Source: Thermodesulfobacteriota bacterium | GTDB taxonomy: Bacteria; Desulfobacterota; WTBG01; JAGOGO01 | DNA length: 32,000 nt | NCBI GenBank assembly: GCA_026625185.1 | Contig: CP113000.1 | Coordinates: 2,415,622 to 2,447,621, forward strand | Reading direction: 5' to 3' | Shown here: one piece after another, positions 2 to 29,810 of the stretch | Position numbering within the stretch: the first letter of the stretch is position 1 | Layout of the letters: every line of letters begins with the position of its first letter | Program-made: the position numbers and the translations under genes | Notes under the pieces: generated by a model | What the model saw: the letters and a program-made list of their open reading frames with translations, nothing else | Told to the model about the DNA's origin: nothing | The model's database searches: none

Positions 2-247
2 GCCCGTTTGGAGTTTAGCGAAAAAGAACTCGAAGCTTTCACCCGGCAGATGGACAACATTCTTACCTATTTTGACAAACTTAAGGAAGTTGACACCACC
101 TTAGTTGAGCCGACGAGTCATGCTATCCGGGTTACAAACGTTTTTCGCGAAGATGAGGTCAAAAAATCGATCGCCTTGGATTTGAGCTTGAAAAACGCTC
201 CGGAACAGGAAGGCAACTGTTTTCGCGTTCCTAAAATTATTGAATAA
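2..247 (+). CDS. gatC: Asp/Glu-tRNA(Asn/Gln) amidotransferase subunit C, 5'-truncated by the window edge
   Basis: The frame is open from the window edge. The sequence [34 protein letters not shown] is typical of GatC. gatA follows directly. Confidence 0.85.
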
Positions 248-6444: not shown

Positions 6445-6717
6445 ATGACGATCGCATGGGGTCCTGAAAACGCAAAATTAAATTTTCAAAAGCATAAAAT
6501 TCGGTTTTCGGATGCAGAGTCGGTTTTATTTGACCCCTTAGCTTTAACCCAAGAAGATAAAGATGCTGACGGGGAGCAGCGTTTTATTTCTATTGGCACT
6601 GATGCCTTTAACCGGGTTTTAGTTGTGGTGTATGCCTTTCGCGGGGATAAAATCCGAATCATTCCCGCAAGGCGGGCAACAAAAAAAGAAAGAAAATGCT
6701 ATGAAGAAAGAATATGA
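6445..6717 (+). CDS. brnT: BrnT-family (DUF497) type II toxin
   Basis: The ~90-aa protein has the DUF497 pattern (N..KH.I.F..AE.VLFDP...ED...GE.RF..IG...VLVVVY..R.D.IRIISAR.AT..E) and overlaps its downstream partner. Confidence 0.8.
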   Translation: MTIAWGPENAKLNFQKHKIRFSDAESVLFDPLALTQEDKDADGEQRFISIGTDAFNRVLVVVYAFRGDKIRIIPARRATKKERKCYEERI

Positions 6718-6961
6718 TTTTCGCAATGCAAAACGTGGTCAGGTTGTAATCCCAAAAGGAAAAACTCGTATTACGATCTATATTGATAATGATGTGCTCG
6801 AAAAATTTCGTTCCCGTGCCGATTCCGCCGGATTCGGTTACCAAACAATGATAAATGAGGCTTTGAGAGAATACCTTAACCAGCCCCAAGAATCCTTGCT
6901 TAATGAGAGCACACTACGAAAAGTGGTTCGTGAAGAGTTAAAACGGGCTGCCCATCATTAA
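6701..6961 (+). CDS. brnA: BrnA-family antitoxin
   Basis: The MKKEYDFRNAKRG N-terminus and a C-terminal RHH-like segment (GYQTMINEALREYL) are present. ATG 6701 overlaps brnT by 17 nt. Confidence 0.8.
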   Translation: MKKEYDFRNAKRGQVVIPKGKTRITIYIDNDVLEKFRSRADSAGFGYQTMINEALREYLNQPQESLLNESTLRKVVREELKRAAHH

Positions 6962-7793: not shown

Positions 7794-8630
7794 CTAAAGT
7801 TCTGCGGGGAGTTCATTGAGCTGGGTGAGGGAAAAGACCGGCCCGTCTTTGCAGACATACATCGTGCCGATGTTGCAGCGGCCGCAAATGCCGATGCCGC
7901 ACTTCATCCGCTTTTCCAGGGTAGTGATGATCTGATCATCTTTAAATTTAAGCTCTGAGAGAGCTTGGAGAGTAAATTTAATCATGATCGGGGGACCGCA
8001 GGTGATGGCCACGGTATTTTCCGGGGAAGGAGCGACTTCCTTCAGCACGTTAGGAACTAATCCGACCCGCTTATCCCACCCGGGGAATTCATTGTCCACC
8101 GTCAATATCATGTTAACATCAGATCGTTCTTCCCATTCCTTAAGCTCGTCCTTGTAACAGAGATCATTCGGAGTTCGGGCGCCATAGATGATGGTGATGT
8201 CGCCATAATCCGCCCGCTGGTCGAGCATAAAGAGGATCAAGGTACGAAGCGGGGCAAGACCGATACCGCCACCGATAAAAAGAATCTGTTTGCCTTTCAT
8301 TTGCGCATAAGGAAACCAGTTTCCCAACGGAGCGCGCACGCCGATTTGATCACCTTCGGCAAGTTCATGGAGGGCAGAGGTAACTTCTCCGGCCTTCATC
8401 ACGCTGAACTGAAGATAATCCATGCGCGTGGGCGGGGAGTTAATGACAAAGGTTGACTCTCCCACGCCAAAGAGAGAAAGCTGTCCTACCTGCCCTGGTT
8501 CAAAGGTAAAGTTTTTCATCTTCTCAGGATTATTTAATACCACCTGAAAAGATTTGATATTAGGCGTCTCATCAATAATTTTTATAACCGTACCTATTTC
8601 AGGGAGGTAGGGATTATGAATCGAACTCAT
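7794..8630 (-). CDS. flxA: FAD/NAD(P)-binding oxidoreductase with C-terminal 2Fe-2S site (PyrK / sulfhydrogenase gamma-like; FlxA-type)
   Basis: It has the NAD-binding motif LFIGGGIGLAPL and the C-terminal cluster motif MKCGIGICGRCN. It is the last gene of an hdrCBA-flxDCBA-like arrangement. Confidence 0.7.
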   Translation of the reverse strand: MSSIHNPYLPEIGTVIKIIDETPNIKSFQVVLNNPEKMKNFTFEPGQVGQLSLFGVGESTFVINSPPTRMDYLQFSVMKAGEVTSALHELAEGDQIGVRAPLGNWFPYAQMKGKQILFIGGGIGLAPLRTLILFMLDQRADYGDITIIYGARTPNDLCYKDELKEWEERSDVNMILTVDNEFPGWDKRVGLVPNVLKEVAPSPENTVAITCGPPIMIKFTLQALSELKFKDDQIITTLEKRMKCGIGICGRCNIGTMYVCKDGPVFSLTQLNELPAEL

Positions 8631-8633
8631 CCG

Positions 8634-9677
8634 TTAAGCTCCTTGAGCATGAGCAACAATTTCACTTATATCCACTGACATCGGGCAGTAACGAATACAC
8701 CGGCCGCAACCACAGCAGGCGATCACGCCTTGGTATTTTTTCGGATAATAACTAAACTTATGCCCCACGCGGTTTTTTAAGCGCTGGTGTTTGTTTTGTC
8801 GCGGGTTATGGCTGCTTGCCTCTAAGGTAAAGTGGAAAAACATGCAGGCATCCCAGCTCCGAATCCGCTCGCCGCTATTGCCGACCTGCTCATCCGTGAT
8901 GTTAAAACAATAACAGGTGGGGCACAGGTAGGTGCAGGCGCCGCAGCTGATACATTTTGCGGTTTCTCCTTCCCAAAATTGACTATTCTCAAAAAGAGAG
9001 AGAAGTTTTTCCGGCGTACCTTCAAGTATAGCAAAAGGTTTTTTTACTAATGCGGAAACTCTTTCGTGAGCTTTTTGCGCTTGTTCTTTATACGCGCTGC
9101 CGTCTTCAAATAAACTATCTTTGAAAATCTCTTTCCCTTTTTCCGTCATCGGCTCAAAAAAGTACCCTTTCCCCAGCTCGGTCATCATAAGGTCAGAACC
9201 ATCGCTTTCGGCCGGGCCTCGTCCAACGGACGTACAGAAGCAACCCGGAGAGGGCGCATTGCAGGCCAGGGTGATAATGGTGGTCTTTTCTCTTCTTCCT
9301 TTATAGTAAGGATCAGCGGTATCGGTTTCAAGGTAGACTCGGTCATAGATACGAAATCCCTGGGCATCGCAGGGTCGGCTACCAAAAATAATTGTTGGGA
9401 CAAAATCTAAATTTTCTTTAAGTTCTAAAGAGGTCTTTTTGGGGTCTTCCGGATCCTTTTTAAAATTAAAATTAAAGAGTGTCTCGCTTTGCGGAAAGAT
9501 AATTCCTTTGGGGGGGAGATTAGCCGGCCGGGTAAGGCAAAGGGTCGCTCCCGGAGCAAAACGTTTAAAGAGAACAACCTCACCATCTAAAACCGGCGCG
9601 AAGACCGCAAATTTTTTGCTTAAGGCTTCGAGTAACGCAGGTAAATTTTCTTTGGGGAGAAAACCAGTATCAGCCAT
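8634..9677 (-). CDS. flxB: Fe-S subunit (sulfhydrogenase beta/AsrA-like; FlxB-type)
   Basis: It has the motifs CISCGACTYLCPTCYCF and CCGCGRCIRYCP and is adjacent to flxA. Confidence 0.65.
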   Translation of the reverse strand: MADTGFLPKENLPALLEALSKKFAVFAPVLDGEVVLFKRFAPGATLCLTRPANLPPKGIIFPQSETLFNFNFKKDPEDPKKTSLELKENLDFVPTIIFGSRPCDAQGFRIYDRVYLETDTADPYYKGRREKTTIITLACNAPSPGCFCTSVGRGPAESDGSDLMMTELGKGYFFEPMTEKGKEIFKDSLFEDGSAYKEQAQKAHERVSALVKKPFAILEGTPEKLLSLFENSQFWEGETAKCISCGACTYLCPTCYCFNITDEQVGNSGERIRSWDACMFFHFTLEASSHNPRQNKHQRLKNRVGHKFSYYPKKYQGVIACCGCGRCIRYCPMSVDISEIVAHAQGA

Positions 9678-10624
9678 TAGATTTCATGCTCCTCAATAGT
9701 TGCCTCTTCTACCTTAAAGGTGTACATGGGTGGTGTATCATCGGGATTCATTCCGGCTTCATAACCAAATAGTTCTTTTAAATCCATGCTGATCTTCTTT
9801 TTGATTTTCGCCACCGGAATATCCATCGGGCAAACGCGCTCGCATTCTTCACACGAAATGCATCGGCCCGCCAAATGGAGACCGTGAATCATGTGGAACA
9901 TAGCTTTCTCCGTCACATTAGCCCGCTGTGAGGTCCAGTGTGGGTCACGGCTTTCGGCAATACATTTATCCTGACAGATGCACATTGGGCAGGCATTCCG
10001 GCAGGCATAGCAGCGAATACAACGGTCGAATTCCTTCTCCCAATACGCGCGCCGCTCTTCGAGTGATAGTTTTTCAAATTCTTTGGTTTCCTCAAAGGTA
10101 TCCTGCGGCTTATTGGATTGAATCGCCTCTCCTGCTAAGACATCATATTGGAGAGGAGTGGCTAATTGACAGGTTGCACATTTTCTTGGCGCAACATCTG
10201 CAGAAGGGATCGTCTTTGGCCCTTCGGGAATTTTTACGATGATATTGTCACCTTCGAAAGTCACTTCCTGGACAGTCTGCTGATTGATCGCCGCCATGAC
10301 TTTTTTAACGGAAATAACCCGTAGACAAGGAACACCGATGACTTTAATGTTTTCCCGGGTGATTAATTTTTCCTGCATGTACTGCACAATCGCGCGGCTA
10401 TCACATCCTTTTACTATCACCCCGACTTTTCCTTTCAAAAAGGGAATATAAGAGCAGAGGTTTTGCACGCAAAGCGGGTTCCAGATAAGCTGATCTACTT
10501 GTTCCGGCTTGTCCAGGAAATAAGGAGTCGCATGCAAGGGATCAAATCCCTGGCGATAACCGATAACAACATCCACCTCAGGTAATATCTTTCGTACCGC
10601 TTCTTTCAGTTTTTCTATGAACAC
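9677..10624 (-). CDS. flxC: Fe-S subunit with two 4Fe-4S motifs (FlxC-type)
   Basis: It has the motifs CIRCYACRNACPMC and CISCEECERVCP, and its ends overlap both neighbouring genes. Confidence 0.6.
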   Translation of the reverse strand: MFIEKLKEAVRKILPEVDVVIGYRQGFDPLHATPYFLDKPEQVDQLIWNPLCVQNLCSYIPFLKGKVGVIVKGCDSRAIVQYMQEKLITRENIKVIGVPCLRVISVKKVMAAINQQTVQEVTFEGDNIIVKIPEGPKTIPSADVAPRKCATCQLATPLQYDVLAGEAIQSNKPQDTFEETKEFEKLSLEERRAYWEKEFDRCIRCYACRNACPMCICQDKCIAESRDPHWTSQRANVTEKAMFHMIHGLHLAGRCISCEECERVCPMDIPVAKIKKKISMDLKELFGYEAGMNPDDTPPMYTFKVEEATIEEHEI

Positions 10625-11052
10625 TCTGTTTTCTCCTCTTTTTGGTGGAAGGGCCCGAGCTCATGAATTGCTTTGGTAAAATCGGTCACCACATTTTTCC
10701 ACCGAGCGCCCTCAGAAGCAGAAACCCAGGTATAGTGAAACCTGCGCTCATCAATGCCCAAGAAAGGAAGGAGCCGCTTTAACATTTCGAGCCTCCTTCG
10801 GGCATAGAAATTTCCATCCGAATAATGGCAATCACGGGGATGGCATCCGGAAACCAAAACCCCATCGGCGCCATTAAGCAGTGCTTTTACCACGAATAAA
10901 GGATTAACTCTTCCGGAGCAAGGAACCCGGATAATACGGAGATCAGTCGGTTGCTTGAAACGACCGACTCCGGCGGTATCTGCCCCTCCGTAGGAACACC
11001 AGTTACATAAGAAACCGACAATGCGAAGTTCTTTTCCGGCTAGGTAAGACAT
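10615..11052 (-). CDS. flxD: MvhD-like 2Fe-2S protein (FlxD-type)
   Basis: FLCNWCSYGGAD...VPCSGRV...GCHPRDCHY is the MvhD/FlxD signature. All conserved positions are Cys. Confidence 0.85.
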   Translation of the reverse strand: MSYLAGKELRIVGFLCNWCSYGGADTAGVGRFKQPTDLRIIRVPCSGRVNPLFVVKALLNGADGVLVSGCHPRDCHYSDGNFYARRRLEMLKRLLPFLGIDERRFHYTWVSASEGARWKNVVTDFTKAIHELGPFHQKEEKTECS

Positions 11053-13001
11053 AGGGCGTTAACCTCAGCTAAGAGTTGGTTGTCAGTAAAGTGCTGTAGT
11101 TGGATCGCCCCGCAGGGACAGGTGGAGTTACAAATTCCGCAGCCGGCACAAACCGTTTCGATAACATTCGCAATAATTCTCCCGTCACGGAGTTGTTGTT
11201 CTTCAATTGCGCCGAAAGGACAGGTCCCGATGCATTTGCGGCAGCCGACACAAATATTGGTATTAACCCTTGCTATCTGAGGATCGGACTCTAAAGTATC
11301 TTTAGAAAAGATCGAAAGGACTTTGGCTGCTGCCGCGCTTCCTTGGCCGACAGAGGCAGGAATATCTTTTGGTCCTTGACAGGCGCCGGCTAAAAACACT
11401 CCAGACGTATTAGTCTCTACGGGCCGCAGTTTGGGATGGCTTTCTACATAGAATCCATGCGGATCATAAGAAATATGAAGTTTTTCAGCTAAGGTTCTGG
11501 CATCAGTAGTAGCAGTTACTGCGGTTGCGAGCACGACTAAGTCCGCCTCAATTTCCACTTGTGTACCTAAAAGGGTATCAGCTCCTTTGACAATCATTTT
11601 TTTCCCTTTGGGATAGATTCTTGATACCCGGCCCCGGATATATTGCACACCATATTCTTCCTGAGCCCTTCGGGTAAATTCATCATAGCCCTTTCCCGGA
11701 GAACGGATATCCATATAAAAGACGTAAGATCGAGAGTCGGGGATATGATCTTTGGTTAAAATAGCTTGCTTGGCAATATACATGCAACAAAAGTTGGAAC
11801 AGTAAGGGATACCGATGGATTTGTCCCGGGAACCCGCGCACGACACAAAAACGATGGTTTTAGGTTCCGCGTGGTCAGACGGTCTTTCAATGTGTCCTGA
11901 GGTAGGGCCTGAAGCATTGAGGATTCGTTCGTATTGAATTCCCGAGATCACATCCGGATAGCGGCCGCCGCCGTATTCCGGAAGTTTATCGAGGTCAATC
12001 AGACCATAACCGGAAGCGACAATAATCGCTCCCACATCCTCCGTTACAATTTCATCCTTCATTTCGTAATTGATGGCTCCGACCGGGCAAAACTTAGCGC
12101 AGACACCGCACTTGCCTTTAATGAACTGCCGGCAGAATTGAGCATCAATCTTGGCTTTTTTGGGAATCGCTTGGGGAAAAGGGATATTAATTGCCCGGGC
12201 AGGTGCAACCCCAAAATTAAAATAGTCAAAAGCATTCCGAGAAGGGCATTTTTCGATGCAGGCTCCGCAGCCGGTACATTTGGACCAGTCTACGTAAGTT
12301 GCTTTTTTGCGGATTTTAATCTGGTAATTGCCCACATAACCTTTGATCTCTTCGATTTCGGAATAGGCGTACAGATTTATTTTTTCATGCTGGGATACAT
12401 CCACCATCTTGGGGCCTAAAATGCAGATTGAACAGTCTACCGTGGGGAAGGTTTTATCCAGACGAGCCATCATGCCCCCGACCGAAGGGCTTTTTTCCAC
12501 CAGCACCACATCTAACCCACCATCGGCACAGTCCAGCGCGGCTTGCATACCGGCTACGCCACCACCGATAACCAGCACCCGTTTATTAATTTTAAATTTG
12601 GCCGGGAAAAGAGGCTTGTTTTGTTTTGCTTTTTCAACCGCAAGCTTTATCGCTTCAATCGCTTTATTAGTATTTAATTCTTTATCTTCTCCAATCCACG
12701 AACAGTGTTCCCGGATATTAGCCATTTCAAAAAAGTACCGATTTAGTCCGGTTTTTTCCACTGTCCGGCGGAACGTGACCTCATGCATCCGCGGTGAACA
12801 GGCGGCAACCACCACTCGGTCAAGTTTTTCTCGTTTGATTGCCTCCTTGATTTCTTCCTGGCCAGGTTCGGAGCAGGTGTACATGTAGGTCGTAGCAAAG
12901 GCGACACCGGGCATCATTCGGGCTGCTTCGGCAACTTTAGCCACCTCAACCGTACCGGCAATATTATTTCCGCAATGACAAATAAATACTCCAACCCGCA
13001 C
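11040..13001 (-). CDS. hdrA: Heterodisulfide reductase subunit A, full-length all-Cys form
   Basis: It has the N-terminal CHCGNNIAG motif, the FAD motif VIGGGVAGMQAA, DCSICILGP, the inserted ferredoxin motifs CTGCGACIEKCP and CGVCAKFCP, and C-terminal CVGCRKCIGTCP/CAGCGICNSTCP. It starts at GTG, with GAGGAG inside the hdrB 3' end. Confidence 0.92.
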   Translation of the reverse strand: MRVGVFICHCGNNIAGTVEVAKVAEAARMMPGVAFATTYMYTCSEPGQEEIKEAIKREKLDRVVVAACSPRMHEVTFRRTVEKTGLNRYFFEMANIREHCSWIGEDKELNTNKAIEAIKLAVEKAKQNKPLFPAKFKINKRVLVIGGGVAGMQAALDCADGGLDVVLVEKSPSVGGMMARLDKTFPTVDCSICILGPKMVDVSQHEKINLYAYSEIEEIKGYVGNYQIKIRKKATYVDWSKCTGCGACIEKCPSRNAFDYFNFGVAPARAINIPFPQAIPKKAKIDAQFCRQFIKGKCGVCAKFCPVGAINYEMKDEIVTEDVGAIIVASGYGLIDLDKLPEYGGGRYPDVISGIQYERILNASGPTSGHIERPSDHAEPKTIVFVSCAGSRDKSIGIPYCSNFCCMYIAKQAILTKDHIPDSRSYVFYMDIRSPGKGYDEFTRRAQEEYGVQYIRGRVSRIYPKGKKMIVKGADTLLGTQVEIEADLVVLATAVTATTDARTLAEKLHISYDPHGFYVESHPKLRPVETNTSGVFLAGACQGPKDIPASVGQGSAAAAKVLSIFSKDTLESDPQIARVNTNICVGCRKCIGTCPFGAIEEQQLRDGRIIANVIETVCAGCGICNSTCPCGAIQLQHFTDNQLLAEVNALCLT

Positions 13002-13004
13002 GCG

Positions 13005-13964
13005 TTAAGACTCCTCTTCTTCAGCTTTTTTGGCCTTGGGCTTTTTTGCCTTGGCTTTTTCTTGTTCTTCTTTGATTCGTTCCTCAACCGGCCTTCGGGT
13101 TTTCAACAAACCTTCTGCCTGGATATTATGCTTATCAATTCCCAGTTCCTGAGGAGAATACCCATAGGTTAATCCCATGACTTGAGTGAAAAAAAGAACC
13201 GGTATATTAAAGGAAGACCCCATAGTGTTGTTGATTTGCCCTTGGCGCAGATCCAGGTTCTGATGGCAAAGCTGGCACGTGACGACCAGGCAATTTGCTC
13301 CGGCATCTAACGCCATGCTTAAGACCTTCGAGGAAAGCTCATTGACCATTTTTCTTTTCGCCACTCCGAAAGCCGCCCCGCAACATTCCACTTTAAAGGC
13401 AAAGTCACAAACTTTAACGCCCACTGATGTCATAAGATTATCCATGGCCATAGGATTTTCCGGGTCATCAAACTCCATAATTTCAGGGGGACGATTAATA
13501 ATGCACCCGTAATAGGGGGCAACCTTCAAGTCAGGAAAATCAAGGGTAACTTTTTCAGCAACTGGTTTAGGCCCAATATCCTCAACGAGGATTTGGAGGA
13601 CCGATTTTGCCGTCACTCCACAGTTGTATGGTTCATCAAGAATCGCATTAACTTCTTTCTTGAAACCCTCTTCTTTTTTCATCCGAAGATGCGCTTTTTT
13701 AAAAGCCGAAAGACACGCGGGGCAGGCGGTGATCACCGTGGAAGCTCCCATCTTTTCCACAATCGCTAAGTTGCGGGCCGCGACCGCAGCAGCGAAAACA
13801 TGGTCTACAGAATGGGCCGGAGTAGAGCCACAGCAGCTCCAGTCATCCGGCTCAATAAGCTTCACTCCTAAGGCGGCAAGCACCTTGCGGACTGACATGT
13901 CATATTCGATGGCTGAAGCTTCAAGCGAACAGCCGGGAAAATATATGTACTCTTTTTCAGACAC
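13005..13964 (-). CDS. hdrB: Heterodisulfide reductase subunit B (two CCG domains) with a K/E-rich C-terminal tail
   Basis: It has the motifs DWSCCGS and VECCGAA. The final ~30 aa are KEEQEKAKAKKPKAKKAEEEES-like. Confidence 0.9.
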   Translation of the reverse strand: MSEKEYIYFPGCSLEASAIEYDMSVRKVLAALGVKLIEPDDWSCCGSTPAHSVDHVFAAAVAARNLAIVEKMGASTVITACPACLSAFKKAHLRMKKEEGFKKEVNAILDEPYNCGVTAKSVLQILVEDIGPKPVAEKVTLDFPDLKVAPYYGCIINRPPEIMEFDDPENPMAMDNLMTSVGVKVCDFAFKVECCGAAFGVAKRKMVNELSSKVLSMALDAGANCLVVTCQLCHQNLDLRQGQINNTMGSSFNIPVLFFTQVMGLTYGYSPQELGIDKHNIQAEGLLKTRRPVEERIKEEQEKAKAKKPKAKKAEEEES

Positions 13965-14523
13965 GATTTTTTCTCATTTCCTGGAATTTGCGGAAAATTT
14001 CTGCCACCTTATCGCGCCCTTTGATCCTGGTGGGCAAAAAGTGGATTTTACCTTTGCCGAGGATCTTTGGTCCCAAATCAGCATCAGCAAGCAAATGCCC
14101 GGATTTGAAGTTATACCCCATAAGTATGCCAACTTCAAAAACCCGGCCATGGTGTTTCATGGAGGAGAGAAACGAATCATAAAAAGTTTTTACATCTTTT
14201 TCAGAAACGTAGTTTTCACGGCGGGCGATAATGCGGAGCACATCCATGATATGAGCGATATCAATCTCACAGGGGCAACGAGTGGTACAGGTTTCACAGG
14301 TAGCGCAAAGCCAAATTGATCGGGAGTTAAGGATAGTCTCCTTCTGCCCCGTTTGGAAGAGACGCATCACCTGGCTGACCGGGTAATCAAAGTATTTCGT
14401 ATAAGGACAACCGGCCGTACAGTTCCCACACTGGTAACACAGTGCCGGATCTTGAAGGCTTTCTTTTTTTACCTGGTCAATAAATTGCCAGTCAGTTTTT
14501 TCGGTTAAATTAATAGGTTCCAT
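13957..14523 (-). CDS. hdrC: Heterodisulfide reductase subunit C
   Basis: It has the motifs CYQCGNCTAGCP and CATCETCTTRCP. Confidence 0.9.
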   Translation of the reverse strand: MEPINLTEKTDWQFIDQVKKESLQDPALCYQCGNCTAGCPYTKYFDYPVSQVMRLFQTGQKETILNSRSIWLCATCETCTTRCPCEIDIAHIMDVLRIIARRENYVSEKDVKTFYDSFLSSMKHHGRVFEVGILMGYNFKSGHLLADADLGPKILGKGKIHFLPTRIKGRDKVAEIFRKFQEMRKNRV

Positions 14524-14714: not shown

Positions 14715-15200
14715 TCAAACTTTGATTATCGCACAGATTTCGTTATAGATCTCATCGACAATTTCGGGGATTCGTTCAGCAACAATCGGAGAGCATTGTT
14801 CTTCGAAGGTATAACAATCAGAGACGCCAATGCCATAAATTATGACTTCTTGGGGAATAGGGAGGCCTAAACGTTTTCCAAAGGTGATAGCAATGGGAAG
14901 GTTGATTTCGTGGAGGACACCAAGCCGTGAGGTGGGCGTAAAGTCCTCCACCCCAAACTTCATGAGCTTACCGGCATGCTCTTTACCCAGATCAACGGCA
15001 TCAATAATGACCGCCTTGTCGTAGCCGTAAAGGATGTCGAGAAGGTTAAAACCAGCCAGGGATGCTTCAACAAAATCTATCTCCGGAGAGGAAAGGCGTT
15101 TTTGCAACCCTCGGACTATATAAATACCGACACCATCATCTTTGAGAATGGTATTTCCTAATCCCAATACGAGGATTTTACCCGTTCTATGCTCGCTCAA
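14715..15200 (-). CDS. [NiFe] hydrogenase maturation endopeptidase (HyaD/FrhD family)
   Basis: It has ILVLGLGNTILKDDGVGIY at the N-terminus and overlaps the mvhA 3' end by 14 nt. Confidence 0.85.
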   Translation of the reverse strand: MSEHRTGKILVLGLGNTILKDDGVGIYIVRGLQKRLSSPEIDFVEASLAGFNLLDILYGYDKAVIIDAVDLGKEHAGKLMKFGVEDFTPTSRLGVLHEINLPIAITFGKRLGLPIPQEVIIYGIGVSDCYTFEEQCSPIVAERIPEIVDEIYNEICAIIKV

Positions 15201-16647
15201 GCTGCTCCACTACCTTACCGTGGATATCATAGATCGTTAATTTTAGAGGCATTTGGCCTGGGAGCGAATGGGTAGCACAGCTGAAGCAGGGGTCGTAGGC
15301 TCTAAAGGCCATTTCGATCATGTTCAATATACCGTTTGATATGACCTGACCTTTCTTAATAAGGCCCATGGCAGCTTTTTTGATGGACATCGAAATAGGA
15401 GCATGATTGTTGGTGGTGCCGACAATAAGGTTTGCCTTTTCCACAAACCCGTTTTTGTCAGTCTTATAGTGGTGGTAGAGCGTACCGCGCGGCGCTTCAA
15501 CCACCCCAACGCCTTCGGTAGGTGTCTCGGTCGGCAAGATGCGCACATTGGGATCAGTGATACTTTTATCCTGAGCCAGTTCCAGCAACCGTTCCGAAGC
15601 ATACATCAGTTCTATTACCCGCGCCCAGTGGTTGGCCAGTGTTGCATGCACCGGTTTTCCGAGGGTTGTTATATACTTTTCATAGGCCTCTTGTGCGAGG
15701 GGAGTAGCCATTCCTGAGGCTGCATTCAACCGCGCTGCGGGTGCAGCACGGTAGACGCCGCTTTCTTTGCCGTCAACAAAACCTTTCCATCCCACTTTCT
15801 TGAGGTAAGGGAACTTGAGATATGACCATGGCTCCACGTGTTCGGCGATATTGTCCAAATATTCTGAGGGTGTGTATTTGGCTACTTCTTTCCCCTCAGG
15901 GTCAACCACCTTGATTTTACCGTCGTAGAAGTTTACCTTATCATTCTGGTCAACCAGTCCCATGTAGTAGGTTTTCAACTGGTAGGGTTCGCTCAGAATG
16001 AGGTCCACATAGGCTTTGTTCTTGAGCACCACATCATCAAAGAGCTGTAAAGTAAACTTGGAGAATTCAACGCAGGACTTTGCCTTCTCCTCGATCTGGG
16101 CGCGCTCTTCCTCGGTTATCCCTTTGGATACACCACCAGGAAGGGTCCAGACCAAGTGAGTAGACCTTCCGGCAATCATGACCTGAATATCCTGAGCAAT
16201 ACCTCGATGTTTGATAACTTCCCCACCGATCGGAAGTCCTACTTTATCCACCACGCCGAGGATATTGCGTACTGCCGGGTCAGCATCCGGACCGAGCACA
16301 AAGTCCGGCGCCGCCAATGCGTAGAAGTGGGCGATGTGGCTGTGGACATAGTGAGCAGAATAAAACATCTCCCGAAGTTTTTTGGTCACTTCCGGAGGAT
16401 CAGCATGGTACACGGCATCTACGGCCTTACCCGAGGCCAGGTGATGTGCGCCCGGTCAGACCCCGCAGACCCTCGTAACAATTCGGGGTATTTCCTCTAC
16501 CGGCCTTCCTTCACAAAACTTCTCAAATCCCCGCAGCTCCGGAACCTGGAAATAGACATTCTCCACGTCACCGGCATCATTCAAGAAGATTTCGATTTTT
16601 CCATGGCCTTCAAGCCTGGTAATGGGATCAATACTAATTTTTTTCAT
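15187..16647 (-). CDS. mvhA: [NiFe] hydrogenase large subunit, group 3c MvhA-type, with an in-frame TGA (putative Sec, codon 64)
   Basis: Track ORFs 16456..16647 and 15187..16413 are in the same frame. They are separated by TGA (plus-strand tca at 16456-16458) and 14 codons reading PGAHHLASGKAVDA. The joined protein has RLEGHG, RVCGV-U-PGAHH (RxCGxCxxxH) and C-terminal DPCFSCATH plus a cleavable tail. Confidence 0.85.
16416..16446 (-). promoter_or_regulatory. Candidate bacterial SECIS hairpin downstream of the mvhA UGA
   Basis: The mRNA reads CAUC-ACC-UGGCC-UCGGGUAA-GGCCG-UA-GAUG. It starts 10 nt after the UGA. It has a 4-bp lower stem, a 5-bp upper stem and a GGU-containing apical loop. Confidence 0.4.
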
Positions 16648-17605
16648 TACTTCTTTTCCTCCTTAGATACGAAGCGGCCAATCCAAAGCGGTAAAAAGTG
16701 CCCACCGGATCCGCAATTTGGGAGACAATCGAATTAATTTCCGCCGGGTCATTAGAGTCGATTACCGAGGCTAACGCACTTAAAAATTTTGTTCCCTGAT
16801 CATGCACTTTGGGAGCTGGGCCATAACAGCCACGACACGGCATGTTAGACTTAACCGTGCACCGATTACCACAGCCACCGCGGGTTGCTGGGCCTAAGCA
16901 GATAATTCCTTGATCCAAGAAACACTTTTGGTTGTCAAAGATGATTTCATGCGGCCGATAAAACTTCTTAACTTTGCGGTCTTCCTTTGGCCGGGTGCAC
17001 TCATCACACAAGGTCTTATCCGAGGCGCCAATCACTGCTCCCTTGGGAGGCAGATCTCCCTTAGCAATGATATCAACCACAGCCGCAACCTGATGAATTG
17101 CCGGTGGGCAACCGGGCATGAAGTAATCAACATCCACAACTGCTGCTGTTGGCAATACCGTATTATAAAATTCCGGGATGATTAATTCGCCTTCCTGAGC
17201 AGAGAATCGTTGCACGGGCAAAATGCCATCAGGATTTTCCGTAGAAGGCGTCTCTCGATAGGCACGATTGAGAACAGTTTCCTTGGTGAAAAGGTTTGCC
17301 AAGCCAGGTATTCCACCCTGATGGGCACATGCCCCCATAGCAACTACTATCTTCGACTTTGCCCGCAAAAGTTTAGTCATATGTTCATTTTCAGAGTTTC
17401 TTACCCCGCCATTAATGAGACAAATATCAATGGCCCCATCAGCCATCTTTTCAATTTCTTCGTATTTGTGGTCGGTCGCTACCGGCCAGAGGACAATGTC
17501 GGCAATTTCGGCTATCTTCAGCAGACCCTCATTTGTATCCAGTATAGCCACATCACAGCCTCCGCAGCCTGCTGCCCAGTAGATCGCCAGCTTCAGCTTT
17601 GCCAT
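16634..17605 (-). CDS. mvhG: [NiFe] hydrogenase small subunit, MvhG-type
   Basis: It has N-terminal WAAGCGGCDVAILD and distal cluster cysteines (GCPP, CLGPATRGGCG, CRGCYGP). It overlaps the mvhA start by 14 nt. Confidence 0.9.
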   Translation of the reverse strand: MAKLKLAIYWAAGCGGCDVAILDTNEGLLKIAEIADIVLWPVATDHKYEEIEKMADGAIDICLINGGVRNSENEHMTKLLRAKSKIVVAMGACAHQGGIPGLANLFTKETVLNRAYRETPSTENPDGILPVQRFSAQEGELIIPEFYNTVLPTAAVVDVDYFMPGCPPAIHQVAAVVDIIAKGDLPPKGAVIGASDKTLCDECTRPKEDRKVKKFYRPHEIIFDNQKCFLDQGIICLGPATRGGCGNRCTVKSNMPCRGCYGPAPKVHDQGTKFLSALASVIDSNDPAEINSIVSQIADPVGTFYRFGLAASYLRRKRSNEKN

Positions 17606-17615
17606 GCCTTACCTC

Positions 17616-18035
17616 CTATTTCACCAATAACTTGGTTCCGTTAAAAGGTCCGAGAGCCTTAACCTTCTTAACAAACTCATCCACCACCTTAGCATACCGA
17701 TCTCCTTCAGAAGCTGATACCCACTCGAGCCTCACCCGATCATCTTCGACTCCAAATTGTTCAAGCACCCGCTTCAACAGGGAGTATCGCCTGATGGTTT
17801 TATAGTTTCCCTCATGGTAGTGGCAGTCACCGGGGTGGCACCCGGTAATGAGAACACCATCAGCGCCAGCGGCAAAGCACTTCATCACAAAGGAAGGCTC
17901 CACCCTCCCACTGCACATTACCCTTACTGGCCGTACGTTAGGAAGATATTTTATTCTTGCTGTGCCGGCCAGATCCGCGCCCGCATAAGAACACCAGTTA
18001 CAAAGGAATCCTACAATTTTCGGTTCAAAACTCAT
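17616..18035 (-). CDS. mvhD: MvhD (methyl-viologen-reducing hydrogenase delta subunit-like 2Fe-2S protein)
   Basis: FLCNWCSYAGAD...MCSGRV...GCHPGDCHY is the MvhD signature. Confidence 0.9.
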   Translation of the reverse strand: MSFEPKIVGFLCNWCSYAGADLAGTARIKYLPNVRPVRVMCSGRVEPSFVMKCFAAGADGVLITGCHPGDCHYHEGNYKTIRRYSLLKRVLEQFGVEDDRVRLEWVSASEGDRYAKVVDEFVKKVKALGPFNGTKLLVK

Positions 18036-19768
18036 ATAAGCACCCCCTCAATTTCAGAGACTATTTGATCTTCAGTAAAGAATTGGGCGATTATCGCTTC
18101 GCTGGGACAAGCAGCCGCACAGGTGCCGCATCCCTTACAGAGAACGGGATTTATTGATGATAGTTTCTCGTTTGGGTCATAGGAAATGGCGGTGTAAGGG
18201 CAGAGGTTATTGCATATCCGGCAGCCAGAACAGAGCTCCGGGATTATCTGTGAGATCGCGGCATCTAACTCCACCTCACCTTTCATGATCAATGACATAA
18301 CCTGTGAAGCAGCCGCCGATGCCTGAGCCACAGTATCCGGGATATCCTTAGGGCCTTGCGCTGCTCCGGCAATAAAGACCCCATCTGTTGACGTGGAAAC
18401 CGGTGCAAGCTTTGGATGCCTTTCCATGAAGAAACCATCCTTGCTCCGGCTCACCCCAAAAAGCCTCCCTAAAGCCTCAGCATCTTCTGGTGGTTCGAGG
18501 GCACAACAGAGCACTGCCATATCTACCGGGATCCGTCTGATCCTGCCTACCAATGTGTCCTCGCATCGGACCACAAGTTTTCCTTTCTCTTCCTCATAGA
18601 TCGGAAAGGTAATCTCTCCGGTTTTACCCCTTACAAACCTAACTCCTTCTTTCAAAAGTCGCTTATAGAACTCTTCATAGCCCTTCCCAAAACAGCGGAG
18701 GTCAATGTAGAAATTATAAACCTCAGCGTCAGTTTTCTCCTTTATCAGGTGGGCAAATTTGAGGGCGTACATACAACAGACCCGGGAACAGTATTCGTGG
18801 AAGTTTTCATCTCTGCTTCCCACACAATGAAGCAAGGCAACTGCTTTTGGTTTTTCACCATTTTCCAGAAGGACTTCTCCACCCGTAGGTCCGGCAGCAC
18901 AGTTGAGCCATTCAAATTCAAGGCTGGTGAGTACATTAGGAAGGGTTCCATAACCGAACTGGGCCATTGCCTCGGGATTAAAAGGATGGAAACCAGGGGC
19001 GAGAAGAATGTTTCCCACTTCCACTTCAATTTCCTCTTCCTTCATTTCATAGTCGATCGCTTCTCTCTCACAGACTTGGCTACAGATGCCGCACTTCCCG
19101 GTGCGAAAATGGATGCAGGTCTCGGGGTTAATTACCGGCTTATTCGGTACGGCTTGCATACTCGTTACATAAATCGAAGACTTGGGACCCAAGAGAAGCT
19201 CGCTGTGAACAATTTTTCGTTCCTTGATGTCATCCATGTGAATGTAACCAGTAGGACATATAGTCGCACAGGCACCACAAGCAATACAGCGATCTGATTC
19301 AGCAGTGAGGTGTCGCTCCTCTCCTTTACCCTCAAACCGAAAAACTACTTGGCCAACCACTTCCTCACACATATTGACGCAGAGGCCACAGAGGATACAG
19401 CCTTCCCCCTCCGCGGGTATGGAAATATTATATTCTTCAGCGAGATGCCGCAAAATGGGAACCTCGGGTGCCCGGGCGATGAGCCGTTCCACTGCTTTTT
19501 TTCTTCGCTCTTTCGTGCGATCGGAATCCGTGTAGATCTTCATTCCTTCTTTAACGTTGCTATTACAGGAGGTGGCAAGGCTACTTTCTTCCTTCCCCTC
19601 CTTTTCCCGCTTTACCTCCACGATACAGAGGCCGCAGACAGTCGTCGGTTTTACCCGCTCATGGTGGCAAAGGGTAGGAATGTCAATCCCGGCCTTTTGG
19701 CAAGCTTTAAGGATGGTAGATGATTCCTCTACCTGATATGGTTTATCGTTTATAGTAATCGAGACCAA
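18032..19768 (-). CDS. hdrA: Fusion protein: an N-terminal 2Fe-2S ferredoxin-like domain plus 2x[4Fe-4S] module, joined to the C-terminal two-thirds of HdrA
   Basis: The N-terminus has C-x10-C-x2-C-x19-C (LCHH..VCGLC..SC), then CILCGLCVNMC and CIACGACATICP. From CIHFRTGKCGICSQVCE onward it is colinear with HdrA1 from its second inserted-ferredoxin motif to the C-terminus. It has its own AGGAGG RBS and TTG start at 19768. Confidence 0.8.
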   Translation of the reverse strand: MVSITINDKPYQVEESSTILKACQKAGIDIPTLCHHERVKPTTVCGLCIVEVKREKEGKEESSLATSCNSNVKEGMKIYTDSDRTKERRKKAVERLIARAPEVPILRHLAEEYNISIPAEGEGCILCGLCVNMCEEVVGQVVFRFEGKGEERHLTAESDRCIACGACATICPTGYIHMDDIKERKIVHSELLLGPKSSIYVTSMQAVPNKPVINPETCIHFRTGKCGICSQVCEREAIDYEMKEEEIEVEVGNILLAPGFHPFNPEAMAQFGYGTLPNVLTSLEFEWLNCAAGPTGGEVLLENGEKPKAVALLHCVGSRDENFHEYCSRVCCMYALKFAHLIKEKTDAEVYNFYIDLRCFGKGYEEFYKRLLKEGVRFVRGKTGEITFPIYEEEKGKLVVRCEDTLVGRIRRIPVDMAVLCCALEPPEDAEALGRLFGVSRSKDGFFMERHPKLAPVSTSTDGVFIAGAAQGPKDIPDTVAQASAAASQVMSLIMKGEVELDAAISQIIPELCSGCRICNNLCPYTAISYDPNEKLSSINPVLCKGCGTCAAACPSEAIIAQFFTEDQIVSEIEGVLI

Positions 19769-19781
19769 GCTTTTCCCTCCT

Positions 19782-20627
19782 CTATTCTACTTCCTTGATT
19801 GTTTTATTTCCCATCTTGATGGCTCTTTTCTTTGGTACCGTATAAGCAGGGCAAGCGGCGAAACATATCCCGCAGCCGGTACATTTTTCCAAGGAAACAT
19901 ATCGGGGTTTCTTCTTGATTTTAGCCTTGAAGCTTCCAATGAAGCCTGATACTTCGGTTACCTCGCTGTAAGTAAGAAGGGTTATATTTGGATGCTGGCC
20001 CACCTGGGCCGTCTTGGGCGTCAAAATTCAGGCCGAGCAATCAAGGGTAGGGAAGGTCTTATCCAGTTGGGACATATGCCCTCCAATGGAAGGCTTCTTT
20101 TCGACAAGGTAGACGTGGTTTCCCCCTTCGGCTAAATCTATGGCTGCCTGAATTCCGGCGATACCACCCCCAACGATCAAGGTGCTGGGATTGATCTTGA
20201 CCTTTTTCATCTCTAAAGGAGCAAGGAATGCAGTTCGGAGCACTGCCCCCGAGACTAAGGCCTTTGCCTTTTGGGTGGCATCCCGCGCGTCTTCATGAAC
20301 CCAGGAACAGTGTTCCCGGATATTGGTCATATAAAATAGATAGCGATTAAGGCCCGCTGCTTCACAGGCTTTTCTAAAGGTATTTTCATGCATCCGCGGT
20401 GAACAGGCAGCTACCACCACGGCGTTAAGACCTTGCTCTTTGATATCGTTTTTTATAAGGTCTTGACCTGGATCAGAGCACATAAAACGGTACTCTTTAC
20501 ATACCGCCACTCCGGGAAGAGACGAGGCGAATTCCACCACCTCCGGGACATTTAATTTTCCCGCAATATTTGCGCCACAATCGCAAACAAATACCCCTAT
20601 CTTTTTCCCCGCGATTTTCGCTTCCAT
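19782..20627 (-). CDS. hdrA: HdrA N-terminal part (N-terminal Fe-S domain plus the first half of the FAD domain) with an in-frame TGA (putative Sec, codon 200); ends at TAG
   Basis: Track ORFs 20028..20627 and 19782..20024 are in the same frame and joined by TGA (tca at 20028-20030). The joined sequence TLDCSA-U-ILTPK aligns with TVDCSICILGPK of HdrA1. It ends after the first inserted-ferredoxin motif CTGCGICFAACP. Confidence 0.8.
19997..20010 (-). promoter_or_regulatory. Candidate SECIS upper stem-loop downstream of the hdrA UGA
   Basis: The mRNA reads GGCCC-AGGU-GGGCC, a 5-bp GC stem with a GGU-containing tetraloop. It starts 17 nt after the UGA. Confidence 0.4.
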
Positions 20628-20639
20628 GGCAAAATTCTC

Positions 20640-21509
20640 CTATAAGTATTTGGATACCACCGGCTCTGCCGGAACGATTAAACTTTTAAATCCCAGTGAG
20701 TTTTTGTCAAGCCCAAGGGCAATCCCCATTAACTGGGTAAAATAGAGAATCGGCATGGTGAAACCAAGATTAAATTTCTTTTTTACTCGGGGTTGATAAA
20801 CATCAATATTCATATGGCAAAGAGGGCAAGTAACCACCATAAGATCTGCCTTGTTATCCTTAGCACAGATGAGCAGATTTCTTACCATCCTAAGCCCAAT
20901 ATCCTCTCCCAACCCCACTAACGTGCCTCCACAGCATCTTACCTTTGCGGGAAAAAAGACCGGGTTGGCACCCAATGCGGTCACCAGTCTGTCTAACGAC
21001 TTTGGATTTTCGGTATCCTCAACTCCTCCTTTTGGCCTTACCATCAAACAGCCGTAATAGCAGGCTACGTTGAGTCCCTCCAGTCGGCGTTTCACCAGGC
21101 TGCTTATTTTTTCTAGTCCCACATCGTTTATGATAATCTCAGCTAAGTGTCTAACCTTTACGTTGCCATTATAGGAAAGCCCCACTTCCTCCAGTACCTT
21201 ATAGATTTTTTCTTTTATTTCTGGGTAATCTTTGAGATACTGATTCGTCTTTCTGAACATGGTGTAACATCCACTGCAGGGGATCGCCATATCCTTTCCC
21301 TCTTTCTCGGCTAAAGCGAGGTTCCTAGCGCACAGGGCAAAAGAGTTCATTTCATTTATGCCCATATAAAGGGAGGCGCCGCAACAGTTCCAATCCTCCA
21401 GTTCTTTAAAATTAACTCCTAAGGGCGCTGATATGGTATTGATCGATTCAAAGTAAGCCTTTGAAGTAGCCTTTAACGAACATCCGGGATAATATATGTA
21501 TTCCATCAC
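20640..21509 (-). CDS. hdrB: Heterodisulfide reductase subunit B (second copy)
   Basis: It has the CCG motifs DWNCCGAS and VRCCGGT. It lacks the K/E tail of copy 1. Confidence 0.9.
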   Translation of the reverse strand: MMEYIYYPGCSLKATSKAYFESINTISAPLGVNFKELEDWNCCGASLYMGINEMNSFALCARNLALAEKEGKDMAIPCSGCYTMFRKTNQYLKDYPEIKEKIYKVLEEVGLSYNGNVKVRHLAEIIINDVGLEKISSLVKRRLEGLNVACYYGCLMVRPKGGVEDTENPKSLDRLVTALGANPVFFPAKVRCCGGTLVGLGEDIGLRMVRNLLICAKDNKADLMVVTCPLCHMNIDVYQPRVKKKFNLGFTMPILYFTQLMGIALGLDKNSLGFKSLIVPAEPVVSKYL

Positions 21510-22081
21510 AGTCCGCCAACCTCCTCTGCTTTTTGGATCATTGTCTTTATTTTATTAACGTCTTTTATTTTCTCTGGCATCAGCGGGAGTTTACCATGAG
21601 AAAAGAGGCTCCATCCTAAAGGTATATCTTTAATAGATTTAAAGGGGTTCTTCATGGCAAACCGGAATACAAGCTCTGCTTCATGGTTTCGGCCGTATCT
21701 ATTTATCATATTGACAAACTCCTTCGAAAGTTTTTCCACCTTTAAACCCCGAGGATATTTCCCGGAACGGAGGGCAATTCTCTTTAAAGCATACATAATA
21801 TCGGTAATCTTTATTCCCATGGGGCACCGATAAGTACAGGTATAGCACGATGTGCAAAGCCAGATGGCCTGACTCGACAAAACTTCCTCTCGCAATCCTG
21901 CCCTGATCATTGCCACAAGATGCCTTGGAGTATAGTCCATCATAAAACTTGCCGGGCAGCAGCCGCTACAAGTACCGCACTGAATACATTGCACAATCTC
22001 CTCACCGCCAGGGATGGTACTGATTTCTTTTATAAAATCCAGAGCTACACCCCGTTCCATTAAAACATCTAGCCCAGCCAT
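21506..22081 (-). CDS. hdrC: Heterodisulfide reductase subunit C (second copy)
   Basis: It has the motifs CIQCGTCSGCCP and CTSCYTCTYRCP and overlaps hdrB2 by 4 nt. Confidence 0.9.
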   Translation of the reverse strand: MAGLDVLMERGVALDFIKEISTIPGGEEIVQCIQCGTCSGCCPASFMMDYTPRHLVAMIRAGLREEVLSSQAIWLCTSCYTCTYRCPMGIKITDIMYALKRIALRSGKYPRGLKVEKLSKEFVNMINRYGRNHEAELVFRFAMKNPFKSIKDIPLGWSLFSHGKLPLMPEKIKDVNKIKTMIQKAEEVGGL

Positions 22082-29244: not shown

Positions 29245-29487
29245 ATGGCAACTTCAAAAATTGCAATAACAATTGATGACAACACGCTAAAGCAACTCGA
29301 TCTTCTTGTTAAATCAAAACTATTTCCAAACCGTAGTCGTGCTATTCAAGATGCCGTTACAGAAAAACTAATGCGGCTTGAAAAAGGACGACTTGCCAAA
29401 GAGTGCGCAAAACTTGATTCTCAATTCGAACAGTCTTTAGCGGAAGAAGGTTTTTCAGCGGAAATGGAAACATGGCCGGAATATTGA
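29245..29487 (+). CDS. Ribbon-helix-helix (CopG/MazE-like) antitoxin
   Basis: The N-terminal beta strand [15 protein letters not shown] and [10 protein letters not shown] form the RHH signature. It overlaps the toxin gene by 16 nt. The start is uncertain among GTG 29236, ATG 29239 and ATG 29245. Confidence 0.75.
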
Positions 29488-29810
29488 GGGGAAATATCCA
29501 TTGGGCAGATTTAAACCCTGTTATTGGTAGTGAACAGCGTGGGTTGCGTCCGGTTCTGGTTTTAAGTCACAATGTTTTTAACGAAAGGTCCGGGACGGTT
29601 ATTGCAGTTGCGTTAACAAGTCAACAACCAAAAGCCGGTTTCCCTCTGACCTTAGAGTTAAACGACAAAACCCTTCCCAAAAAATCCTGGGTTAAAATCA
29701 GTCAGGTTCGTACTCTTTCCGTAAAACGCATCAGGAAGAAAATTACAAAAGCCTCGGATGAAGAACTTTCCCTTATTATTGAAGGTTTGAATGAGATCAT
29801 TGGCTATTAG
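29472..29810 (+). CDS. mazF: MazF/PemK-family endoribonuclease toxin
   Basis: [27 protein letters not shown]...AVALTS...[10 protein letters not shown] is the PemK/MazF pattern. Confidence 0.85.

Follow-up and report, generated by a model that had tools for sequence, protein, structure and literature searches.

A putative selenocysteine at the bridging N-terminal cysteine position of a bacterial Mvh-type [NiFe] hydrogenase

Selenium sites in described hydrogenases

In [NiFe] hydrogenases, the metal site is held by two cysteine motifs of the large subunit; the second cysteine of both the N-terminal and the C-terminal motif bridges Ni and Fe, and the two first cysteines are terminal Ni ligands. 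The bridging second cysteine of the N-terminal RxCGxC motif corresponds to Cys68 in D. gigas and Cys79 in Escherichia coli hydrogenase 1 (Hyd-1). The present study concerns an mvhA gene, encoding a hydrogenase large subunit, in which this position is occupied by an in-frame UGA. The gene lies on the minus strand of a 32,000-nucleotide stretch of contig CP113000.1 from a Thermodesulfobacteriota bacterium, hereafter the window, in which all positions given below are counted. With a probability of about 0.87, comparison of the gene with its relatives indicates that codon 64 is recoded to selenocysteine (Sec, U) in a single 486-residue large subunit of the MvhA type.

In the canonical [NiFeSe] enzymes, Sec occupies the first cysteine of the C-terminal DPCxxC motif, a terminal Ni ligand (PMC13582414, PMC8020662), in agreement with the position given in the original prediction, which had been made on the window sequence. 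The arrangement of two terminal and two bridging cysteines around the Ni is described in PMC8020662, and the bridging role of the second cysteine is made explicit for the N-terminal CXXU motif in PMC13582414. Non-canonical Sec positions have been reported before. As cited in PMC13582414, Baltazar et al. (2011; Eur J Inorg Chem) found an N-terminal CXXU in three sequences, two of Group 1 and one of Group 3, and the Sec was, according to the same account, predicted to bridge Ni and Fe. The non-canonical Sec of that study is cited differently in the two papers that refer to it, as the bridging C579 of the C-terminal motif in PMC8020662 and as an N-terminal CXXU in PMC13582414. PMC8020662 itself refers to "purported examples" with a bridging Sec. 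In bacteria, the consensus of the selenocysteine insertion sequence (SECIS) is a G at position 1 or 2 of the loop (PMC13582414), and the same SECIS rule was found for the 27 CXXU-type Group 4 sequences described by Takano et al. (2026; PMC13582414), which show a scattered Sec/Cys pattern. A 2026 review of the prokaryotic selenoproteome (PMC13188914) gives MvhA/VhuA/VhuU as UxxC only. In the searchable literature, we found no survey of the N-terminal Sec site in Group 3, and one Group 3 sequence is mentioned.

Sec has also been engineered into the bridging position of E. coli Hyd-1. The C79U variant was assembled and active, at 13% of native, the highest value among the four variants carrying one Sec each (Evans et al., 2021; PMC8020662). 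It had a lower K_M for H2, was native-like under transient O2 and was almost inactive at prolonged 10% O2 (PMC8020662). The mvhA product would carry Sec at the same ligand position, and C79U shows that such a site can assemble and turn over H2. It should, however, be kept in mind that Hyd-1 is an O2-tolerant uptake enzyme of Group 1d, with Sec placed artificially at a UAG codon, and that its properties may not carry over to a natural group 3c enzyme that has co-evolved with its Sec.

The in-frame UGA of mvhA and the hairpin that follows it

The list of open reading frames (ORFs) gives mvhA as two pieces in one frame, 16456..16647 (63 aa) and 15187..16413 (408 aa), separated by 14 codons that read PGAHHLASGKAVDA. 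The break is a TGA at 16456-16458. One-frame translation of 15187-16647 yields a product of 486 residues with UGA64 read through, the TGA being the sole interruption. At the site, the minus strand reads CGA ATT GTT ACG AGG GTC TGC GGG GTC TGA CCG GGC GCA CAT CAC, which is translated as R-I-V-T-R-V-C-G-V-[TGA]-P-G-A-H-H. The original prediction had described the two-piece break at this TGA, the intervening codons, the joined product and a C-terminal DPCFSC motif with ordinary TGC and TGT codons at 15277-15294. All of this is borne out by the minus-strand sequence, the ORF list and the one-frame translation, and its coordinates and sequence statements were correct throughout. The features that bear on the argument are as follows.

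15187..16647, minus strand: mvhA, [NiFe] hydrogenase large subunit of the MvhA/VhuA type (group 3c-like), from translation, Pfam, PDB and NCBIfam
16658..16664, minus strand: AAGGAGG ribosome-binding site, 10 nt 5' of the mvhA ATG (16645-16647), from sequence
16465..16467, minus strand: TGC codon of Cys61, first cysteine of the N-terminal motif (terminal Ni ligand), from sequence
16456..16458, minus strand: in-frame UGA, codon 64, at the second cysteine position of R-V-C61-G-V-U64-P-G-A-H, putatively Sec and a ligand bridging Ni and Fe
16422..16439, minus strand: proposed SECIS hairpin, +20..+37 from the U of the UGA, from fold and Sec/Cys comparison
15277..15294, minus strand: C-terminal ligand motif D-P-C-F-S-C, codons TGC and TGT, from sequence and translation

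The joined protein matches the Pfam family NiFeSe_Hases. Among solved structures its best match is MvhA, 5ODC_F (E=1.9e-115, alignment over residues 1-474), followed by 9SFI_g and 9SW2_F (F420-non-reducing hydrogenase subunit A), with Group 1 enzymes at 1e-37 or weaker. The motif region is aligned without gaps, RVCGV[U]PGAHHLASGKAVD facing RICGICQVAHHLASAKAVD of 5ODC_F; residue 64 is therefore the second Cys of RxCGxC, and the UGA falls on the ligand column to which it had been assigned. The best NCBIfam model is VhuA, with 416.6 bits. Because this is below the equivalog cut-off of 800 bits, the protein is a bacterial relative of the type and not an archaeal VhuA equivalog. A model related to NuoD and Group 4 scores just 26.8 bits, and the protein is thus MvhA-like (Group 3) rather than a member of Group 4. 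The C-terminal motif reads D-P-C-F-S-C-A-T-H, and both metal-ligand motifs, RxCGxCxxxH and DPCxxCxxH, are present, with U in the second Cys column of the former. The first cysteine of the C-terminal motif, where canonical [NiFeSe] enzymes have Sec (DPUxxC), is encoded by TGC (15286-15288); with ordinary Cys codons in DPCFSC, the site is therefore not the canonical one. The combination of C61-G-V-U64 with C-F-S-C is that of the N-terminal CXXU type. The original prediction had seen in a Sec at this position a different active-site chemistry, without settling whether it had been described. The assignment to the column of the bridging ligand stands, on the alignment to 5ODC_F; the implied novelty does not, in view of the sequences that PMC13582414 credits to Baltazar et al. 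(2011) and of PMC8020662. The window gene adds to the already reported N-terminal CXXU type.

The same TGA is found in three other assemblies from separate sequencing runs and is therefore not an assembly accident. One of them (L006, a Logan assembly of run SRR21915714) has the same 408-aa product and an identical site sequence, TGA included. The other two (L001 and L002), from two further runs, are assemblies of a ~91% identical relative with TGA at the site. In the nearest Cys-type relative, P0001 (loci L003 and L004; 91% identical), this column is TGC, and gene calling gives an uninterrupted 486-aa protein.

Species-representative genomes were scanned with the degenerate pattern TGYGGNGTNTGACCNNNNGCNCAYCAYNNNGC, TGA being required at the second Cys. 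This gave 96 loci, 95 of which are MvhA homologues with TGA at the column, the remaining one (L095) being a chance match. Wherever the locus covers the C-terminus, the frame is open for 420-434 codons past the TGA to DPCxxCxxH, and DPCxxC is present in all these Sec-type homologues. Carriers occur in at least 8 phyla. They include Dehalococcoidia and other Chloroflexota, Desulforudis and other Peptococcaceae/Bacillota, Krumholzibacteriota, Nitrospirota/Thermodesulfovibrio, Syntrophaceae/Thermodesulfobacteriota, Acidobacteriota, KSB1, Latescibacteria and Neomarinimicrobiota; Desulfotruncus alcoholivorax DSM 16058, Desulfoscipio geothermicus DSM 3669 and Desulforudis sp. Tu-874 are cultured. In each of three metagenome-assembled genomes (MAGs), two Sec-type mvhA genes occur, either one on a contig of its own (L022 and L077 in CAWKAJ01, L039 and L040 in JBGOXA01, L042 and L082 in CAWHBU01).

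Of the 120 nearest homologues in the database, 117 are complete and read R-[ILV]-C-G-V-C-P-x-A-H, with Cys at the column (K or S stands for R in three), and the other three are N-terminally truncated gene calls from the source organism and close relatives; DPCxxC is present in 120/120. Codon use at this column, which the original prediction had proposed to count, was tallied in 120 family members sampled by scanning metagenomes with a pattern that had TGH there. TGC (93) and TGT (25) together account for 118, and TGA for 2, so that the Sec type makes up ~2% of the family. When 291 large subunits, 80 of them Sec-type and 211 Cys-type, are placed on a neighbour-joining tree, Fitch parsimony requires 19 or more changes between Cys and Sec, which is a rough estimate. 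Sec and Cys forms therefore interconvert repeatedly within the subfamily.

Downstream of the UGA, where the original prediction had proposed to look for a SECIS, a hairpin with a loop G is found that is conserved specifically in TGA genes. It begins 17-18 nt past the UGA and is formed by a 5' arm UGGCCU (16439-16434) and a 3' arm AGGCCG (16427-16422), with the pairs U20-G37, G21-C36, G22-C35, C23-G34, C24-G33 and U25-A32. The apical loop is CGGGUA (16433-16428; C26-G27-G28-G29-U30-A31), with G at position 2. Over Sec-type genes the element is near-invariant (GGCC-UCGGGU/UCGUGY-AA-GGCC). The same region of Cys-type genes is a fair control, because the peptide is conserved there. All five core stem pairs are formed in 87/93 Sec-type genes versus 11/116 Cys-type genes, and the stem together with a G at loop position 1 or 2 in 87/93 versus 3/116 (Fisher p=3e-47). 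The confinement of stem and loop G mostly to the Sec type is due to codons 7-11 after the UGA (nt 22-36), which are fixed at synonymous sites in TGA genes only. Among genes encoding the peptide A-S-x-K-A, the third bases are C, G, G, C in 84/91 of the Sec type, whereas no combination exceeds 2/41 in the Cys type. At codons 1, 3, 4, 5 and 13-16 after the UGA, the residue is kept (P, A, H, H, D, A, V, Y) and two to four synonymous codons are in free use. Since variation after the UGA is synonymous only, the downstream codons are translated and the read-through frame is under purifying selection at the protein level. Pairs changed on both sides number 4 versus 1.3 in shuffles, a value reached by 0/500 shuffles. 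The compensatory changes are C24-G33 to U-A in L059, G21-C36 to A-U in L083 and, in Nitrospirota genes, GCC to GCG in both Ala codons.

Some relatives depart from this pattern. In P0001 (L003:1192-1250, L004), SGK is kept as GCA-UCA-GGU-AAA-GCC, pair 24-33 is broken and G27 is lost, which is consistent with a decaying, a recently lost or a not-yet-gained SECIS. The most divergent TGA carriers, L076:7376-7429 (a Neomarinimicrobiota MAG) and L102:7821-7874 (a Bacillota MAG), are without the family hairpin and fold into other hairpins nearer the UGA whose loops contain GG (AGGU at +24..27 and GGC at +21..23); these may be independently evolved SECIS elements. At residue 74, the tenth codon past the UGA (window 16429-16431), the Sec type encodes Gly (GGU) or Cys (UGY) and the Cys type mostly Thr, Ala or Val. 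The need of the SECIS loop appears to dictate this residue of the protein.

A second in-frame UGA occurs in hdrA1, upstream in the same operon.

19782..20627, minus strand: hdrA1 N-terminal part, 281 residues, in-frame UGA at 20028-20030, from sequence and hairpin fold

This UGA sits in DCSA-U-ILTPK, where the paralogue hdrA2 (11040-13001) has DCSIC, and CxxU is the Sec site given for the HdrA selenoprotein family (PMC13188914). It is followed, in the same register as in mvhA, by a hairpin GGCCC-AGGU-GGGCC at 19997-20010 (+21..+34), with G27-G28 in the loop. On the coding strand, mvhA and hdrA1 provide the only two in-frame TGA joins inside a gene. Where the neighbouring hdrA is visible, it has U at 9/13 Sec-type mvhA loci versus 1/17 Cys-type loci. 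TGA is the stop of 7/28 annotated window genes; the genetic code is therefore standard, and a reassignment of UGA was rejected.

How the UGA may be read and what enzyme may result

The original prediction of Sec at the second N-terminal cysteine, with cysteine kept in the C-terminal motif, is supported by the alignment to 5ODC_F, the 95 homologues, the Sec-specific hairpin and the UGA of hdrA. Several points weigh against it. The classical covariation signal is modest, because the stem hardly varies. Minimum free energy z-scores of the isolated 59-nt downstream segments are unremarkable (+0.5 to -1.4), and the 59-nt segment of a Cys-type relative has an equally stable fold of different structure. 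The folding energy of a whole segment is thus of little use for telling the two types apart; what is informative is the pairing at each position and the choice of synonymous codons in Sec-type versus Cys-type genes. Four of the 95 homologues (L034, L043, L071 and L086) are interrupted by further internal stops and could represent pseudogenes or errors of assembly. These stops are TGA, TAG, TGA and TAA, respectively, 76-140 codons past the recoded TGA, and MFD-series MAGs are the source of three of these loci; the two extra TGA stops (L034, L071) may be further recoding. Moreover, selA, selB, selD and tRNA-Sec were not found within the 32-kb window by tRNA, Rfam and Pfam scans, and the Sec machinery is presumed. 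The window returned no tRNA gene and no Rfam family at gathering threshold, which is uninformative on the rest of the genome. Finally, for every member of the family, selenium in the protein is deduced from sequence.

This last point raises the question of which amino acid is inserted. The UGA could be read via the SelB/SECIS route and yet receive Cys from a tRNA-Sec-like, Cys-charged tRNA (tRNA-ReC), a caveat raised in PMC13582414, in which case the product would be an all-Cys [NiFe] enzyme; nothing in the window identifies the tRNA that decodes the UGA. We regard this as unlikely. The same operon has a UGA at the classic Sec site of HdrA, an experimentally verified selenoprotein family (PMC13188914), and tRNA-ReC has been reported as an accessory alongside tRNA-Sec, not as its replacement. 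There is also no obvious gain in keeping a costly UGA and its SECIS in 95 lineages when TGC and TGT are one mutation away and Sec and Cys forms do interconvert.

The two remaining explanations assume that translation ends at the UGA, and both are very improbable. Since gene callers break the gene in two, the window holds a second Hdr module and 98% of the family uses Cys, it could be proposed that the locus is a pseudogene, or the TGA a sequencing or assembly error, and that no functional large subunit is made from it. This is effectively refuted by the occurrence of the same TGA in three other assemblies and in 95 species and by the conservation of the hairpin specifically in TGA genes. In addition, the 422 downstream codons are open and conserved, with synonymous-only variation, the small subunit, MvhD and maturation protease of the operon are intact, and no further hydrogenase large subunit is found within the window. 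Split large subunits do exist, as shown by VhuA/VhuU of Methanococcus voltae (PMC13188914, NCBIfam VhuU), and hdrA1 of the same operon is a genuine two-gene split. By analogy, mvhA could encode a natural pair consisting of a 63-residue peptide (...RVCGV) and a 408-residue protein starting at GTG 16413. However, PGAHHLASGKAVDA would then be untranslated, although it holds the invariant His of RxCGxCxxxH and is conserved as protein in all 95 homologues. GTG 16413 is without a ribosome-binding site, unlike the start at the hdrA1 split with its GGAGG, and the first downstream start is not conserved, the product being called at 409 versus 394 aa in relatives. Such a split would also part the two cysteines of one CxxC metal-binding turn and remove one ligand. 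The conserved PGAHHLASGKAVDA codons, the GTG without ribosome-binding site and the varying starts refute a natural two-polypeptide arrangement.

If the UGA is read as Sec, the following scheme can be proposed. The GC-rich hairpin with its loop CGGGUA would act as a bacterial SECIS element and recruit SelB-GTP-Sec-tRNA(Sec) while the UGA is in the ribosomal A site, and translation would run on through PGAHH to the normal C-terminus. Maturation of the full-length subunit would depend on the Hyp system and on the HycI-like protease encoded next to it. The selenolate of Sec64 would then bridge Ni and Fe, with Cys61, Cys459 and Cys462 as the remaining ligands. The resulting [NiFeSe] site would be non-canonical, since its Se would lie in the bridge and the C-terminal position that usually holds Sec would be Cys. 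MvhG, MvhD, the putatively Sec-containing split HdrA1, HdrB1 and HdrC1 of the same operon would be its partners. The enzyme presumably oxidises H2 and bifurcates the electrons to ferredoxin and a disulfide.

Compared with described systems, this site resembles most closely the N-terminal CXXU variants of Baltazar et al. (2011) and Takano et al. (2026), with Sec at the second N-terminal cysteine, a predicted bridging role and cysteine in the C-terminal motif. As in those variants, the UGA is immediately followed by a SECIS whose loop has G at its first or second position, and the Sec type is rare, scattered among Cys-type genes and subject to repeated interconversion. Unlike the membrane-bound Group 4 CXXU enzymes, however, the mvhA product is of the soluble, Hdr-linked Mvh type, and in place of the single Group 3 sequence of the literature, there are 95 species-level genomes here with a SECIS specific to the family. 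Such a widespread and recurrent CXXU in bacterial Mvh-type enzymes, with its own SECIS, appears to be absent from the searchable literature; it extends the known type and does not form a category of its own. With the canonical [NiFeSe] enzymes (HysAB of Desulfomicrobium baculatum and Desulfovibrio vulgaris, 1CC1 and 2WPN; VhuA/VhuU and FruA of Methanococcus), the gene shares a UGA for one of the four Ni-ligating cysteines and an occurrence in anaerobes that also carry a Sec-containing HdrA. It differs in that their Sec is in DPUxxC, terminal and by the proton-relay Glu, whereas here that position is Cys and the Sec is assigned to the N-terminal bridging position. Moreover, the canonical enzymes have been characterised biochemically and structurally, while the N-terminal type described here is known through its genes.

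Beyond this one gene, it is likely that bacterial Mvh-type (group 3c) hydrogenases include a widespread, uncatalogued subclass with Se in the Ni-Fe bridge, present in at least 95 species of at least 8 phyla (~2% of the family) and switched at least 19 times, and that the N-terminal bridging position is the Sec site in these enzymes. If so, the rule of a C-terminal Sec in Group 3 [NiFeSe] enzymes would apply to the archaeal Vhu/Fru only, and bridging Se would give some selectable property in low-H2 anoxic niches, for instance a lower K_M for H2. To our knowledge, the understanding of selenium use in hydrogenases rests wholly on enzymes with Sec as a terminal ligand beside a proton-relay glutamate. 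We know of no natural bridging-Se hydrogenase that has been characterised, the position having been studied only in the engineered C79U variant of E. coli. A natural bridging Se would probe how a softer, more polarisable donor tunes a metal-metal site, H2 affinity and inactivation. The form is common enough to be present in cultured strains, so that purification and study are possible. As Sec-type genes are systematically annotated as two fragments (63 aa and ~408 aa), hydrogenase surveys undercount or misclassify them.

The mvhA operon and neighbouring Hdr modules

On the minus strand (14715-22081), the genes follow one another as hdrC1-hdrB1-hdrA1(split)-mvhD-mvhG-mvhA-hycI-like protease. 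Besides mvhA and the N-terminal part of hdrA1, the operon comprises the following features.

20640..22081, minus strand: hdrB1 (20640-21509) and hdrC1 (21506-22081), from Pfam CCG and Fer4_8
18032..19768, minus strand: hdrA1 C-terminal part, 578 aa, with its own GGAGG ribosome-binding site and TTG start, from Pfam and NCBIfam
17616..18035, minus strand: mvhD, delta subunit linking the hydrogenase to HdrA, without in-frame stop, from Pfam FlpD (1e-53) and NCBIfam VhuD / HdrA2 C-terminus
16634..17605, minus strand: mvhG, hydrogenase small subunit, from Pfam Oxidored_q6, best NCBIfam model VhuG
14715..15200, minus strand: hydrogenase maturation endopeptidase (HycI family), overlapping the mvhA end, from Pfam HycI

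MvhA, MvhG, MvhD, HdrA, HdrB and HdrC are thus encoded together, as in the MvhAGD-HdrABC complex of Methanothermococcus thermolithotrophicus (5ODC). That archaeal complex is all-Cys at the metal site; in the bacterial operon, by contrast, HdrA is split and has an extra NuoG-like 2Fe-2S domain. The N-terminal part of hdrA1 stops at TAG 19782-19784, and the next protein starts at TTG 19768 after a GGAGG. In this C-terminal part, a NuoG/HoxU-like 2Fe-2S and 4Fe-4S domain (first ~190 residues) is fused to HdrA residues ~217-650. The two-gene split is also found in L001, the ~91% relative. A frameshift or sequencing error at 19782 was rejected, because the two genes are cleanly separated, the second has a GGAGG ribosome-binding site, and the arrangement is conserved in that relative. 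The NuoG-like domain in HdrA may imply a different electron input or output.

A second, all-Cys module comes next on the minus strand (7794-14523), with hdrC2-hdrB2-hdrA2-mvhD2 and with FrhB/FdhB-like (9677-10624), Fer4_22 (8634-9677) and NAD_binding_1/DHODB Fe-S (7794-8630) proteins. It resembles Flx/Hdr-type NAD(P)H-linked modules, and the window thus pairs a Sec-type, H2-linked Hdr with a Cys-type Hdr that is probably NAD(P)H-linked. By Pfam, the remaining window genes encode GatA, GatB, MtnA, histidine biosynthesis and toxin-antitoxin proteins. The toxin-antitoxin genes flank the region, with a BrnT/BrnA pair at ~6445-6961 (plus strand, Pfam hits on L005) and a MazF/PemK-family toxin at 29472-29810 (plus strand).

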